NCBI GenBank assembly: GCA_964532665.1
Contig: CAZHMV010000001.1
Coordinates: forward strand, 103,742-167,741
DNA from: an uncultured Anaerolineales bacterium
GTDB lineage: Bacteria; Chloroflexota; Anaerolineae; Epilineales; JAANWY01
Direction: 5' to 3'
Length of the DNA: 64,000 nucleotides
Each line of letters begins with the position of its first letter. Within the stretch, counting starts at the first letter, position 1. The notes under the pieces are model-generated. The model saw only the letters and a list, made by a program, of their open reading frames with translations, made no database searches and was not told the origin of the DNA. The position numbers and the translations under genes were made by a program. This document shows positions 3,612 through 59,013 of the stretch, in pieces.

Positions 3612-3666
3612 AAGGGGAACCTGGGAGAACTCAAGGGAACTCAGGGGAAATCTTGAGTTCCCCTGG
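3612..3666. repeat. GGGAACTC-type short tandem repeats forming a hairpin (GGAACTCA/TGAGTTCC arms)
   Basis: gggaactcaagggaactcaggggaaatcttgagttcccc. A related element occurs at 57543-57610. Confidence 0.6.
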
Positions 3667-3715
3667 TCATCTCCTTGTTCCGTTCGATTCCTCATTGAAC
3701 TCCGCTGACACGCAA

Positions 3716-3731
3716 TTTAGGCGAGCCTAAA
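3716..3731. promoter_or_regulatory. Perfect palindrome TTTAGGC-GA-GCCTAAA, candidate DtxR/IdeR-type operator upstream of the regulator gene
   Basis: 16-bp inverted repeat about 120 bp upstream of the DtxR-family gene start. It shares the TAGGC/GCCTA core of IdeR/DtxR boxes. Confidence 0.4.
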
Positions 3732-3766
3732 CCTCGCATAGAGTATAGTGGGGGTTCCGCGTTTTG

Positions 3767-4906
3767 TCAAGTGCCGGCTGTGGCTTCGAGCGTGGCAGTT
3801 ATGGCCGTCAGCACGTCGGCCTCGGTGACGTCCAGGACGTGGCCTGATGGCGCGCGAACGATGCGGTGATACTCGGGGGTGCCCCAGGGTCCAAAGATCT
3901 CTGGTTCGAACGGTCCCCACAGGTGAACTGTTGGCACATCCAGGGCGACAGCCAGGTGCATCGGGCCGGTGTCTGCGCCGACGGCCAGGCGGCAGCGAGC
4001 CAGCAACGCCGCGGCCTGCCCCAACGTGGTCTCGCCGGCCGCGATGACCGGCGTCGCGTGCATGTGTTCCGCAATGGTCCTGGCCAACTCATCCTCGTCA
4101 GGCGAACCAGTGATGACAATTCGCGCCCCCAGCGTCTCGGCCAGGTGATCCGCCACGGCTGCCCATCGGCGGGCCGGCCAGAGTTTAGCGGGGTCGCCGG
4201 CCCCCGGGTGCACCCCGACGACGGTTTCATGCGGTTCGATCCCCTGATCCGCCAGGAATTGGCTGGCGAAGGCCCGTTCATCCGCCGTCAGGTCGAACCG
4301 CAGCCGGCGGTTGGTGTCGGGAACTGGCCGGCCGGCAGTCCGGGCCAGGGCTTCAACCAGCGCCAGGTTGTGTTGCACTGCGTGTCGATCAGGTACATAA
4401 GCAAGCGCCGTCGTGAGGAAAGGTTGCGTTTCCGGCGTGGCGTAGCCGATGCGTGCCGGGATGCCGGCCAACGCGCTCAGAAGAGCCCCCCACCAGTGAT
4501 CGAATCGCAGGATCAGCGCCGTATCGAAGCCATGCGGGCGCAGCCATCGCGCCTCGCGCAACAACACGCGGTATGGATACCATGGCGAAGGTTTGGGCCG
4601 GCGATCGAACCAGGGGAACGGACATCTGAGCACAGCATCCACATTCGGGTTCCGCTCAACGACCGTGGCAGCCCACGGACCGACGAGGGTGGTGATTCGT
4701 GCATGCGGAAACGTCTCGCGCAGCAGTTGCAGGGCCGGCGTCGCGAACAGCAGATCGCCGATGTGGTCCGGTCGAATCACCAGGATGTGATCTGGCTGCA
4801 GACGGCCGTCTGCAGACGGCGTCTGGATGCCGTGGGCTGCAAGCCGCAAGAGTTGAAGCCGGAGCCATGCGTGTCGCATCATGTTGCCAGGCGCAAGAGT
4901 GTACAT
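3767..4906 (-). CDS. Glycosyltransferase family 9 (heptosyltransferase-like, RfaF/WaaC family)
   Basis: GT9 motifs: IRPDHIGDLLFATPAL and HPGAGDPAKLWPARRWAAV. Confidence 0.75.
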   Translation of the reverse strand: MYTLAPGNMMRHAWLRLQLLRLAAHGIQTPSADGRLQPDHILVIRPDHIGDLLFATPALQLLRETFPHARITTLVGPWAATVVERNPNVDAVLRCPFPWFDRRPKPSPWYPYRVLLREARWLRPHGFDTALILRFDHWWGALLSALAGIPARIGYATPETQPFLTTALAYVPDRHAVQHNLALVEALARTAGRPVPDTNRRLRFDLTADERAFASQFLADQGIEPHETVVGVHPGAGDPAKLWPARRWAAVADHLAETLGARIVITGSPDEDELARTIAEHMHATPVIAAGETTLGQAAALLARCRLAVGADTGPMHLAVALDVPTVHLWGPFEPEIFGPWGTPEYHRIVRAPSGHVLDVTEADVLTAITATLEATAGT

Positions 4907-5010
4907 ACAGTTCGGACTGGCTGCCCGGGCTGCGTGTATGAGAACAGCGGATCGCTCGGATTTACGGATTCCCAGGCTCCGAATCCGTAAATCCGAGCGA
5001 TCCGTTGTTC

Positions 5011-56792: not shown

Positions 56793-57519
56793 GATGATTA
56801 GTCTGACACACGTAACCAAAGTTTACTGCATGGGCACTGTTGAAGTCCATGCCTTGCGCGGCGTCTCGCTGTACATCGACGAGGGTGAGATGGTCGCCAT
56901 CATGGGGCCGTCGGGGTCGGGCAAGTCCACGCTGATGAACATCATCGGCTGTCTGGACACGCCGACGGCCGGTAGCTACTACCTGGCCGGCCAGGACGTG
57001 AGCCAGATGGATGACGACCAACTGGCCGAGATCCGCAACAAGCGCATCGGCTTCGTCTTTCAGACATTCAACCTGCTGCCCCGAACTCCCGCCCTGGACA
57101 ACGTGGAGTTGCCACTCATCTACGGCAACGGCAAGGACCGCCGGCAACGGGCCATCGCAGCTCTGGAGAGTGTGGGATTGGGGGAACGGGTGGATCACCG
57201 GCCCAATGAGCTATCCGGCGGCCAGCAGCAACGGGTGGCCATCGCCCGCGCTCTGGTGACGAACCCGTCCATCATCCTGGCCGACGAGCCGACGGGAAAC
57301 CTGGACAGCCAGGCCGGACAGGAAGTGATGGCCATCTTCCAGCAACTGAACCGAGAGCGAGGCATCACGGTGGTGTTGGTCACCCACGAGCCGGCCATCG
57401 CCGCCCACGCCCAACGGGTCATCTCCATTCGGGACGGCCTGATCGTCGGCGATGAGCCGGTGGCCGAACCGAGGGATGCTGAAGCAGGGGTTTCTCTGTA
57501 CAACAGCGGTAACGTATGA
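56793..57519 (+). CDS. ABC transporter ATP-binding protein, MacB/LolD-like
   Basis: Walker [10 protein letters not shown], signature [15 protein letters not shown], Walker [13 protein letters not shown]. Confidence 0.9.
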
Positions 57520-57542
57520 TCACCTGGTCGGTTGGCGTTCGC

Positions 57543-57610
57543 TGAGTTCCTCTGAGTTTCGCCGGGGGGTTCGGGGGAACTCGAGGGAACTCAGGGGAAC
57601 TCGGGGGGGT
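57543..57610. repeat. GGGAACTC-type tandem repeat hairpin between the ABC ATPase and permease genes
   Basis: gagttcctctgagtttcgcc ggggggttcgggggaactcgagggaactcaggggaactcggggggg. Confidence 0.7.
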
Positions 57611-57659
57611 ACCGCGTGAGGGATAAGTATACAGTTGCCAACAGTGAGGTGAGCGATCC

Positions 57660-58904
57660 ATGAACATTGTTGAGAGTATCCGAATTGCCTTGCGCAGCCT
57701 GGCGGCAAACCGACTGCGCTCATTTCTGACCATGTTGGGGGTGATCATCGGCGTGGCGGCGGTGATTGCCCTGCTGGGCATTGGGCGGGGGGCCGAGGCA
57801 GCCATTACCGCCCAGATTCAAGGTCTGGGGACCAACCTGCTCTTCGTGCAACCGGGAAGCACCAGCCAGGGGGGTGTACGCACGGCCGCCGGCTCGGCCG
57901 CCACTCTCACCCTGGAAGACGCCTATGCTCTGGCGGATCCGATCAATGCCCCGTCGGTGGCTCTGGTTGCCCCCGAAGTCTCCCGCTTCGTCCAGGTGGT
58001 GGCCCAGGGCCAGAACACCAACGTGCGCGTGATCGGCACCACCGAGGAATACCAGTGGGTGCGTAACACACCGCTGGAGATCGGGGAGTTTATCGCCCAG
58101 CACCACGTGCAGACCTGGTCGGCCGTGGCCGTGCTGGGGAGCCAGGTGGCGGCCGACCTGTTCGGCGAGATGGACCCAATCGGTCAGACGGTTTACATCA
58201 ACCGCGTACCCGTCCGGGTTATCGGTGTCCTGGCACCCAAGGGCGGTACCGGTTTCTTCAACCCCGACGAGAGCGTCCTCGTACCCATCACCACGCTCCA
58301 GCGCCATCTCGTCGGCGGACGGTTCTTCCGTGGGGGGCACACGATATCGGCCATCAACGTGCAGGTTGCCGACGAGTCGCTGATGGACCAGGCGGTGCAG
58401 GAGATCGCTGAGGTGCTGCGCCAGCGCCATCGCGTGACCTACGAGGACGATTTCAGGATCACAAGTCAAAAGGATTTCCTGTCGGCTATCGCCCAGGTAA
58501 CGGGCATCATGACCCTGTTTCTGGCTGGCATCGCTGCCATCTCCCTGGTCGTCGGCGGCATCGGCATCATGAACATCATGCTCGTATCCGTGACGGAGCG
58601 GACGCGGGAGATCGGCATTCGGAAGGCGGTGGGGGCGCGCCGGCGGGATATCCTGGCCCAGTTCCTGGTGGAGGCGGTGGTGCTCAGCGTGGCCGGCGGG
58701 GCGCTGGGGATCCTGGTTGGGGCAGGGATTGGCCGGCTGATCTCCGGCGTGAACCTGGGCGGCACGGTCCTGACCCCGCTGGTGGAACCGGACGCGGTAC
58801 TGCTGGCGGTGCTCTTCTCGGCTGCGGTGGGCCTGTTCTTTGGGGTCTACCCGGCCTGGCGTGCGGCCCAACTGCATCCTATTGAAGCTTTGCGATACGA
58901 GTGA
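57660..58904 (+). CDS. ABC transporter permease, MacB/FtsX family (MacB_PCD + FtsX domains)
   Basis: N-terminal TM, a large periplasmic domain, and three C-terminal TM helices with an FtsX motif. Confidence 0.85.
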   Translation: MNIVESIRIALRSLAANRLRSFLTMLGVIIGVAAVIALLGIGRGAEAAITAQIQGLGTNLLFVQPGSTSQGGVRTAAGSAATLTLEDAYALADPINAPSVALVAPEVSRFVQVVAQGQNTNVRVIGTTEEYQWVRNTPLEIGEFIAQHHVQTWSAVAVLGSQVAADLFGEMDPIGQTVYINRVPVRVIGVLAPKGGTGFFNPDESVLVPITTLQRHLVGGRFFRGGHTISAINVQVADESLMDQAVQEIAEVLRQRHRVTYEDDFRITSQKDFLSAIAQVTGIMTLFLAGIAAISLVVGGIGIMNIMLVSVTERTREIGIRKAVGARRRDILAQFLVEAVVLSVAGGALGILVGAGIGRLISGVNLGGTVLTPLVEPDAVLLAVLFSAAVGLFFGVYPAWRAAQLHPIEALRYE

Positions 58905-59013
58905 CCAGTAATCAGTGAACAGTGAACAGTAAGCAGTAAACAGTGACCAGTGGGCGGCGGTCAGACTGCATGACTGATGACTGATTACTGATCACTGTTC
59001 ACTGTTCACTGAA
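58905..59013. repeat. Heptamer-periodic hairpin element (CAGTGAA/CAGTAAC family) between convergent genes; supplies the C-terminal codons VNSEQ* of the fusion enzyme
   Basis: ccagtaatcagtgaacagtgaacagtaagcagtaaacagtgacc...gactgatgactgattactgatcactgttcactgttcactg. Confidence 0.8.

Follow-up and report, generated by a model that had tools for sequence, protein, structure and literature searches.

Heptanucleotide-repeat hairpins at gene ends in a Chloroflexota genome resemble the STRR repeats of cyanobacteria

A 64,000-nt stretch of the contig CAZHMV010000001.1 (assembly GCA_964532665.1; hereafter, the window), from a bacterium of the class Anaerolineae in the phylum Chloroflexota, contains 14 elements in which a tandem array of short units, heptanucleotides at most loci, is followed by an array of inverted-complement units, yielding a long hairpin. 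We consider it somewhat better than even (a probability of about 0.55) that these elements are heptanucleotide palindromes similar to the short tandemly repeated repetitive (STRR) sequences of cyanobacteria, which grow and shrink in place by slippage, are kept where they are tolerated and act, if at all, as stem-loops in the RNA, not as transcription terminators. They are a known kind of element in a new phylum, at an unusually high density.

Periodicity, folding and position of the elements

The elements were delineated by reading the loci listed in an earlier sequence-only reading of the window, by Tandem Repeats Finder (TRF), by a scan for self-matches at each period, with shuffled sequences for comparison, and by an inverted-repeat finder. 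The architecture that had been described, a tandem array of units followed by an array of their inverted complements, was recovered at all 14 listed loci by reading, TRF and the inverted-repeat finder. The 7-nt periodicity, which had been called strict, is not: TRF gives period 7 at 11 of the 14 loci (15682, 27611, 33085, 35862, 39712, 41168, 43949, 45418, 46612, 54272 and 58905), period 6 at one (25316) and period 10 at two (3612 and 57543). The period scan detected 19 period-7 segments in the window and none in shuffled sequences; there were no segments with periods 4, 5, 8, 9 or 11, one with period 10 and three with period 12, and the four period-6 segments fell at two places, element 25316 and a short array in a coding region at 28382. 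At least seven different unit families occur within the 64 kb. The pattern of three CAGTNNN units, a gap and three NNNACTG units matches exactly the four loci that had been assigned to the CAGT type, against an expectation of zero.

All 14 elements fold into strong stem-loops on both strands (folding free energy, dG, of -15 to -59 kcal/mol; z of -3 to -12), except for element 35862, in which the sense strand folds weakly (-23.9, z -1.0) and the antisense strand strongly (-44.1). In the ten detected groups, the best stem scores are 9.5-27.5, compared with shuffle maxima of 7-10.5, and the groups of 35862 and 43949 are only barely above their own shuffle maxima. According to the inverted-repeat finder, the arms are 20-39 nt long and 73-97% complementary. 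The shuffled sequences yielded nothing comparable to the elements. The two arms, said to contain the same number of units, are mostly unequal, for example, 9 versus 5 units in element 54272 and about 8 on the left versus 5-6 on the right in element 15682; in element 46612, the final 4-5 units are matched by an almost perfect inverted copy, which gives 33-nt arms of 97% complementarity. The lower-coordinate arm is the longer one in seven of the nine elements with unequal arms, regardless of gene direction (15682, 33085, 39712, 45418, 46612, 54272 and 58905 are among those with this tendency), for which the direction of replication may be the cause.

The sequence-only reading counted at least 17 loci; apart from the 14 that it listed, we found two long hairpins without heptamer periodicity (4941-5011 and 62185-62247), and the 16 hairpins together make up 2.0% of the window. 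Hairpin 4941-5011 is at most loosely periodic and probably belongs to the same population of gap-filling palindromes. The elements, with the two canonical terminators discussed below, are as follows (no strand is assigned unless one is stated; dG in kcal/mol).

3613-3665: element 3612, period-10 hairpin (GGGGAACTCR); dG -20 to -23; GT9 stop codon at 3767, DtxR-family start codon at 3597
4941-5011: hairpin without heptamer units in the GT4-GT9 gap; 31-nt arms, 97% complementary; abuts the GT4 stop codon at 5011
15681-15782: element 15682, CAGTRAY heptamer hairpin; dG -50/-55, z -8; 39-nt arms, 85% complementary
15790-15822, plus strand: canonical intrinsic terminator GCCCAGTGGAACATCACTGGGCG with a T-rich tail, downstream of element 15682 and outside the repeat class
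25317-25398: element 25316, period-6 hairpin (GCGATA/GTGATA) in the FtsW-GltX gap; dG -57/-59, z -12
27609-27655: element 27611, GAGATTS heptamer hairpin filling the minC-minD gap; abuts the MinC stop codon at 27656
33016-33029, minus strand: canonical terminator GGCCCTGTCGGGCC with T7, downstream of element 33085 and before mreB
33093-33166: element 33085, CAGTNNN heptamer hairpin; overlaps the L25 stop codon (33159) by 8 nt
35862-35966, plus strand: element 35862, ACGCART array followed by ACGTCTY array in the Wzy_C gene 34244-37030; 105 nt, 15 units, 35 codons
39713-39805: element 39712, ACGYRAA heptamer hairpin in the M16b-ACPS gap; provides the M16b stop codon TGA (39794-39796)
41167-41243: element 41168, ACGYAAG heptamer hairpin filling the M16a-M16b gap; dG -40/-45, z -8
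43950-44013: element 43949, ATTGCGT/GTACGCA heptamer hairpin in the DAO-UDPGDH gap; 31-nt loop; 31 nt from the DAO stop codon
45418-45484: element 45418, GGGATRC heptamer hairpin; about 6 left and 2-3 right units; overlaps the LPG-synthase stop codon (45479) by 6 nt
46633-46716: element 46612, GGAAGRK heptamer array; z -12; abuts the stop codon of an 85-aa gene (46716)
54272-54387, plus strand: element 54272, CAGTNNN heptamer hairpin in the histidine kinase gene 53165-54625; 9 left and 5 right units
57542-57607: element 57543, period-10 hairpin (GGGGAACTCR) in the gap between the ABC ATPase and FtsX permease genes; 22 nt past the stop codon
58900-59012: element 58905, CAGTRAN heptamer hairpin between convergent genes; 40-nt arms; dG -57/-60, z -8/-11
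62185-62247: hairpin without clear heptamer periodicity in a divergent gap; 25-nt arms, 96% complementary

The four ACG-type elements (35862, 39712, 41168 and 43949) are consecutive on the chromosome, with a chance of adjacency of about 0.01 by our own count (4 of 14), which hints at local spread or exchange among neighboring arrays; the CAGT-type elements are scattered along the window.

Wherever independent JGI metagenome assemblies (one to three) overlap the window, they contain exactly the same elements, which are therefore real DNA, not assembly artifacts. Short-read contigs do end inside the hairpins, as an artifact caused by assembly or by chimeric inverted duplication during amplification would have it: a 189-kb JGI contig (L002) terminates in the loop of element 25316 (window position ~25363) and a Logan contig (L004) within element 15682 (~15720). 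Nevertheless, given the recurrence in up to three assemblies, and given that the copies in coding sequences keep the frame and occur in orthologs from other samples, we regard such an origin as extremely improbable. Because the hairpins break short-read assemblies, their frequency in metagenome-assembled genomes (MAGs) is underestimated. A 5-nt length difference between the window and a JGI contig from sample 3300038380, deduced from a shift in gene coordinates, lies in the UvrC-trypsin gap (window 20033-20499).

The whole window has no match to a known structured RNA in Rfam 15 at the gathering threshold. CRISPR arrays and tRNA- or riboswitch-like structures were set aside, given the lack of spacers and the unit length of 6-10 nt. 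Integron attC sites, which are likewise imperfect palindromes located after each open reading frame, were rejected, given that the housekeeping genes are syntenic across the class, there is no integrase and the arms are periodic, a judgment made without a formal comparison of core sites.

The window (61% G+C) encodes 49 ordinary, mostly housekeeping genes, as judged from JGI gene calls and Pfam assignments on contigs of the same population supplemented by our own Pfam scan; these include minCD, mreBCD, PBP2, ftsW, L25, uvrC, gltX and two M16 peptidases, along with a two-component system and an efflux pump. The claim that the elements are intergenic holds for 12 of the 14, 11 of these lying between co-directional genes and one between convergent genes, and does not hold for elements 35862 and 54272, which are located in frame inside genes. 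The claim that nearly every intergenic gap is occupied proved an overstatement, with the listed elements found in 12 of the 48 gaps. Gaps with a gene 3' end and a length of at least 60 nt number 24, of which 12 are occupied, and the seven divergent gaps contain no listed element; scaled by gap length, the probability of missing all divergent gaps by chance is about 0.008 (our own arithmetic), although one divergent gap does hold the non-periodic hairpin 62185-62247.

The positional statistics cover 13 intergenic hairpins, namely, the 12 listed elements and hairpin 4941-5011. As had been noticed, most of these, 10 of the 13, lie within 6 nt of the upstream stop codon or overlap it, and their preference for gaps that include a gene 3' end, in most cases with co-directional genes on either side, is indeed the positional behavior of repetitive extragenic palindromic (REP) sequences and BIMEs. 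The next start codon follows at a distance of 14-155 nt. Element 15682 begins 6 nt past the metallophosphoesterase stop codon (15674), element 41168 overlaps the M16a stop codon (41242) by 2 nt, and element 58905 overlaps both convergent stop codons, those of FtsX (58904) and of the APH/M23 protein (58992). The positional exception is element 3612, located 15 nt upstream of the DtxR-family start codon and 101 nt from the GT9 stop codon. Several elements themselves contribute the stop codon that ends the upstream gene: that of FtsW (TAG, 25396-25398) is inside the last unit of element 25316, and the M16b protein ends with ...PPMRET* within the array, whereas in a relative without the array (L009), it ends with ...PPEPS*. 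Most of the units contain TGA, TAA or TAG, so that an array closes all three frames within three units. The location of the elements at stop codons, together with their absence from divergent gaps, suggests that the arrays persist only where they are harmless.

The two copies inside genes keep the reading frame. Element 54272 is located in the gene for a 486-aa histidine kinase (HAMP, HisKA and HATPase_c in the JGI call), where it lengthens the turn between the two beta-strands that precede the G1 box (DTG) by about 26 aa. In the alignment with solved kinases, the similarity breaks after GGRVTM and resumes at ITVTDTGTGI, and this interval consists of 28-33 residues here compared with 2-7 in SrrB and VicK. 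Orthologs with 74-77% identity are 459 aa long and lack the segment; orthologs with 93%, 86% and 67% identity carry it. The 86%-identical ortholog has 6 left and 8 right units, compared with 9 and 5 in the window, and the same loop save for one substitution, so that the arms differ by two changes of three units (21 nt), with the frame kept each time. In both arms, the in-frame units read TGT, TTA or TCA and the out-of-frame units read TGA or TAA; stop codons are avoided at four of the four dangerous positions, and therefore the reading frame of the kinase is under selection.

Element 35862 is in frame and stop-free inside the gene for a 928-aa Wzy_C membrane protein (PF04932). Each of its arms is internally uniform, and the two differ from each other at two or more positions per unit, the pattern that unit turnover within an arm produces. 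In Wzy_C orthologs, down to 45% identity, the corresponding loop varies in length and contains peptides, such as THHASRI, FTFYVSR and SHQSSVIS, that are three-frame translations of heptamer arrays. The Rickettsia palindromic elements (RPEs) are palindromic repeats that lie in frame within protein-coding genes, a behavior that elements 35862 and 54272 resemble.

Variation among relatives

The homologs of the window proteins and the syntenic loci all come from MAGs of Anaerolineae and other Chloroflexota, the nearest species representative being an uncultured Anaerolineales MAG with about 80% nucleotide identity. The comparison set consisted of 83 loci (1.23 Mb) from MAGs of Anaerolineae, Caldilineae, Ardenticatenales and related lineages. 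The elements had been described as genome-specific; however, heptamer arrays, some of them forming hairpins, occur across Anaerolineae and Caldilineae MAGs and beyond. Among the 83 loci, we detected 75 period-7 arrays compared with 3 in shuffled sequences; periods 5, 8, 10 and 11 gave 8, 19, 7 and 13 arrays, respectively, and the counts for periods 6, 9 and 12 are inflated by coding repeats. About 14 of the 64 array groups have an inverted partner. The hairpin density in the window is about twentyfold above that in the relatives, for which the figure is a lower bound.

The same orthologous positions recurrently hold arrays. A period-7 array follows the M16a stop codon in 12 of 79 species, compared with 0.9 expected from the overall density, and the M16b stop codon in 8 of 49, with strong stems in 10 of 49; this enrichment is partly due to a general preference for the 3' flanks of genes. 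The units at the M16 stop codons include ACGCAAY, CAGTGAT, CAATGAN, GGGATCA, CCAACTA, CTTCCTT, GAATTGC, AGAACGY and others. Thus, the expectation that loci would be conserved while their sequences differ, which the sequence-only reading put forward for comparison with related genomes, was borne out.

At the same time, four gaps are without elements in the closest relatives: the 3' gap of the metallophosphoesterase gene, GT9/GT4, M16a/M16b and M16b/ACPS. In L009, the M16a/M16b gap holds only the short palindrome ATTACGTAAT and the M16b/ACPS gap an unrelated short hairpin. The GT9/GT4 gap is 6 nt long in L094 compared with 119 nt in the window. Element 15682 is absent in L092, L093 and L094, and in L092 and L093, the metallophosphoesterase 3' gap contains 25 unrelated nt instead of the 102-nt element.

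These comparisons indicate that the arrays arise and change in place through the gain and loss of whole 7-nt units, that the units are homogenized within an arm, and that the elements appear and disappear among genomes with about 80% nucleotide identity. The mirror-image arm would probably be made by fold-back or template switching during replication. From their positions, the arrays seem to persist where they are harmless: they start at, or replace, the upstream stop codon, leave about 15-150 nt for the signals of the next gene and are absent from divergent promoter gaps. Inside genes, only stop-free arrays survive, changing by 21-nt steps in surface loops.

Alternatively, these could be mobile miniature elements, similar to REP/REPIN elements or to miniature inverted-repeat transposable elements (MITEs), copied by a transposase encoded elsewhere in the genome, an origin that we consider unlikely. 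It would account for the two unit families represented by four loci each, with the ACG-type loci consecutive, for presence and absence of elements between close relatives and for copies on phage contigs (see below) that share a loop in both orientations; furthermore, a 94%-identical relative has unrelated MITE-like insertions in neighboring gaps. However, window copies of the same family share only the unit, their loops and flanks being unrelated, and the 64 kb hold at least seven different units. The number of units changes at a fixed site, and different units fill the same orthologous gap. No target-site duplications are apparent at the element boundaries in the comparison of occupied and empty sites, and no transposase family was found in the JGI Pfam calls (4.9-64 kb) or in the scan of the remaining window genes.

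The REP, BIME and REPIN families share with the elements described here the nature of extragenic imperfect palindromes, located mostly after gene 3' ends within operons, with mRNA stabilization among the proposed roles (PMC3733652, PMC3116915). They differ in that REPs are 20-40 nt long, are conserved in sequence within each genome, have GTAG or CGTC at one end and are associated with RAYT transposases, whereas here, the sequence varies by locus, the arms are internally periodic and no transposase was found in the 64-kb window.

The gaps in the two-component and glycosyltransferase regions contain sequences of other kinds. In the 94%-identical relative (L089; GCA_046756905.1; 6160-6390, 7870-8170 and 9760-9960), the gaps between the response regulator and histidine kinase genes and between the histidine kinase and membrane-fusion protein genes hold insertions of 220-300 nt, compared with only 16 and 14 nt in the window. 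One of these insertions has terminal inverted repeats, CTTGACAATGGCACATT...AATGTGCCATTGTCAAG, and is a MITE-like gap filler of a different kind. Exactly at the junction of two GT4 glycosyltransferase genes, window positions 6224-6288 contain 2.8 copies, 100% identical, of a 23-nt unit, TTCATCCTGAGCCTGTCGAAGGG; in L094, these two genes overlap and the junction reads CTTCATTTGAGCCCAGTCAAGGGTCATG, so that the repeat appears to have arisen by local triplication of this stop/start junction. The motif CCTGAGC(NN)GTCGAAGG is also present in the L089 insertions and in L072 and may represent a dispersed family.

Elements within transcripts

The elements had been proposed to function in transcription termination. 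They are stable stem-loops located just past stop codons, and a run of four T follows the hairpin in the sense direction at 27611, where TTTT precedes the minD ribosome-binding site, and at 43949. However, these are the only two such cases, the other 11 of the 13 intergenic hairpins having no T run; the stems of 25-40 bp far exceed those of terminators; and most of the elements lie between genes of apparent operons, such as minCD and the M16 pair, with two more within genes. Moreover, two genes have separate canonical terminators, at 15790 and 33016, downstream of the hairpin. The stem-loop at 15790-15822 is conserved in L092 and L093, both without the heptamer element. Because the order at both genes is stop codon, heptamer hairpin and terminator, the hairpin belongs to the 3' untranslated region (UTR) and is not the terminator. 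A scan with a terminator consensus showed no enrichment in the window over shuffled sequences (14 versus 13.6 hits) and did not flag the elements on the sense strand. Altogether, a terminator role is unlikely, and Rho-independent terminators or attenuators are, in our assessment, a very improbable explanation of the elements as a class. A G+C-rich hairpin of another kind, GGGGGGAGAGGCC...GGCCTCTCCCCC, follows a 186-aa gene at 52255-52290 and has no T run; its stem is identical in the 94%-identical relative (L089, 5265-5300), with the loop GGCTAC compared with TGAAGCCG.

Selection for one RNA strand was assessed through the stability of the sense and antisense structures and through counts of G-U pairs, and no bias was found at the loci: the sense strand is the more stable one at five loci and the antisense strand at six, and the G-U pairs number 23 versus 19 between the strands. 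A mirrored order of unit variants in the two arms was considered as well and dropped, permutation of units giving P of 0.1-1.0. Permuted units do not pair significantly worse, and therefore the pairing of the arms comes from the shared unit consensus, not from co-varying positions. Taken together, the lack of strand bias and of covariation between the arms, the unrelated loops and flanks and the absence of a transposase from the window favor generation in place at the DNA level and argue against a sequence-specific structured RNA as well as against a copy-and-paste element.

An array generated in this manner that is transcribed would still add a stem-loop of 25-40 bp to the 3' UTR or to the intercistronic spacer, where it would most plausibly be a barrier to 3' exonucleases or a substrate of RNase III. 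Roles in mRNA 3'-end stabilization and operon polarity, also put forward in the sequence-only reading, are hypothetical. The Correia (NEMIS) elements of Neisseria are co-transcribed hairpins that are cut by RNase III, which is the effect suggested here. Both the RPEs and the Correia elements are mobile families defined by their sequence, in contrast to the window elements, in which arrays of short units vary in copy number in place.

Occurrence beyond the phylum and function

The sequence-only reading suggested a new repeat class, but heptamer hairpins of this kind are already known as STRR in cyanobacteria. Repeats of 7 bp that form hairpins between hupS and hupL and elsewhere have been described as "not unusual in filamentous cyanobacteria", with transcript stability, translational coupling and termination proposed for their function (PMC2670836). 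Both groups consist of tandem 7-nt units whose inverted arrays form hairpins in the spacers of co-transcribed genes, and CAGT-type units may be common to both. The differences are that the host here belongs to Chloroflexota and is not a filamentous or heterocystous cyanobacterium; that 64 kb contain at least seven unit families, some of them with period 6 or 10; that the inverted arrangement is the rule here and the exception there; and that two in-frame coding copies and the placement against stop codons are documented here. Given the non-cyanobacterial host, we do not call the elements STRR in the strict sense but regard them as this kind of repeat occurring in a new phylum. Our literature searches (Anaerolinea, Caldilinea, Roseiflexus and Chloroflexi) retrieved no description of such elements in Chloroflexota, and searches with the unit sequences gave nothing relevant.

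The STRR units described by Mazel et al. in 1990 are reportedly CCCCAGT, TTGGTCA and CAACAGT. We take the CAGTCAA unit of the window to be a rotation of the last of these, STRR3; the ACG-type, GATAGY, GAGATTS, GGGATRC, GGAAGRK and GGGGAACTCR units presumably fall outside the STRR sequences.

Direct heptamer repeats of TAACTGA are present in marine Beggiatoaceae and in some Cyanobacteria and Bacteroidetes (MacGregor 2015, PMC4679880). Like the window elements, they are intergenic heptamers with a patchy distribution across phyla, and their unit is one base away from the right-arm units of the window (TTACTGA and TCACTGA); unlike these elements, which are inverted, built of many different units and abut stop codons, the TAACTGA repeats are direct, consist of a single unit and precede start codons by a few nt. 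A translational or post-transcriptional regulator has been proposed to read the Beggiatoaceae repeats (PMC4679880), and by analogy, the window elements could be arrays of binding sites for a protein that recognizes 7-nt repeats. The similarity of the CAGT/ACTGA-type units to TAACTGA (about one base), the regular repeat register and the location of some viral-contig copies directly upstream of start codons are compatible with this explanation. Against it, one genome contains many unrelated units, the elements abut stops and not starts, pairing of the inverted arms would hide single-stranded sites and only 1 of the 170 Beggiatoaceae repeat sets is inverted (PMC4679880); we deem it highly unlikely.

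More generally, heptanucleotides are the commonest among the long simple-sequence repeats (SSRs) of prokaryotes, and long SSRs with units of 5-11 nt, sporadic across phyla, have been attributed to polymerase slippage, according to the summary of Mrazek et al. 2007 in PMC4679880. As in the case of the window elements, these are arrays that exceed chance expectation and gain and lose units, whereas the summary describes direct arrays, with paired inverted arrays and placement against stop codons not among the features that it mentions.

Hairpins of the CAGT type also occur on cyanobacterial plasmids and in viruses. A BLAST search of plasmids with element 58905 retrieved 11 records, of which 8 are cyanobacterial. 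On plasmid pA of Kovacikia minuta (L216, 177829-177926), the arrangement is (CAGTNNN)n-CAGGCAAAAACTG-(NNNACTG)n, and the loop CAGGCAAAAACTG is also the loop motif of viral contigs; on a plasmid of Nostoc sp. UHCC 0870 (L215), the order of the two arrays is reversed, with about 130 nt between them. In IMG/VR, at least 120 stretches match the CAGT hairpin pattern, and among the matches listed, there are 944 period-7 arrays per 1.0 Mb. Some viral contigs have about one CAGT-type hairpin per kb (L095-L214, for example, L123, L195, L201, L137, L133 and L172). One of these (L123; IMGVR_UViG_3300025506_000008) is the early region of a Mu-like phage, encoding a MuA transposase, a MuB-like ATPase and Gam, with a hairpin in nearly every gap. 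On phage contigs, the loop AAAGGC(C)AAAA (AAAGGCAAAA) is conserved and occurs in both orientations. Some viral-contig copies are located directly upstream of start codons, and arrays of exactly (N)AACTGA are present on some IMG/VR contigs. The Mu-like phage is only about 26% identical to its nearest counterparts in GenBank, the tetranucleotide similarity of the densest viral contigs to the window is low (r ~0.38), and the loop motif shared by phages and cyanobacteria, AGGCMAAAAACTG, is absent from the window.

The recurrent occupation of junctions and the saturation of gaps in the phage make a selected RNA function a serious rival of the slippage explanation, albeit one that we find doubtful on balance. 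Under this explanation, the stems would punctuate the RNA, protecting the mRNA from 3' exonucleases at the ends of cistrons or being cut by RNase III and so setting the stability of operon segments, with the heptamers being merely the way in which a stem is built and lengthened. The polar position of the elements, which start at the stop codon and are missing from divergent gaps, fits such a role, as do the two cases with the element inside the transcript upstream of a canonical terminator, the orthologous gaps that recurrently hold arrays with different units and the early region of the Mu-like phage with a hairpin in nearly all gaps; the same idea has been proposed for the cyanobacterial STRR hairpins (PMC2670836). 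Conversely, neither stability nor G-U pairs favor the sense strand, and the arms show no position-specific covariation. The closest relatives manage without the elements, with genes even overlapping or 6 nt apart. Besides, two copies lie within coding sequences, and the phage copies have their loops in either orientation.

While we favor in-place slippage with retention of harmless arrays, several observations fit it poorly. In distant species, the stop codons of the same orthologs are again followed by arrays (12 of 79 and 8 of 49), and the compact region of the Mu-like phage carries an array in almost every gap, both of which are easier to explain if the hairpins are useful. The recurrence of CAGT-type units across phyla, including the repeats reported in PMC4679880, is not predicted by unbiased slippage. 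The phage loop conserved in both orientations suggests copy-and-paste mobility, at least in those contigs. Fold-back as the step that makes the second arm is no more than probable, and the contrast in density with the relatives is blunted because short-read MAG contigs break within hairpins.

A broader, quite tentative possibility, which we rate as rather improbable, is a system that spans phyla, in which CAGT-type and related palindromes would punctuate polycistronic transcripts, or would be products of a dedicated activity, and would be used by Mu-like phages. Anaerolineae, cyanobacteria and Beggiatoaceae, which would share such a system, are all known as filamentous groups. If real, it would explain why junctions are re-occupied by different units over long divergence, why the gaps of a phage are saturated and why the density differs about 20-fold among lineages.

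The STRR-type repeats have been fingerprinting targets in cyanobacteria for decades. The same architecture being abundant in an unrelated phylum and on phage contigs, their explanation cannot be specific to cyanobacteria. The hairpins break short-read contigs and create spurious long "shadow" open reading frames and altered C-termini, and so will degrade the assembly and annotation of Chloroflexota MAGs. For the biology of the repeats themselves, the window offers occupied and empty orthologous sites, unit-number variants and coding copies, in which the growth of the arrays and its limits can be documented.

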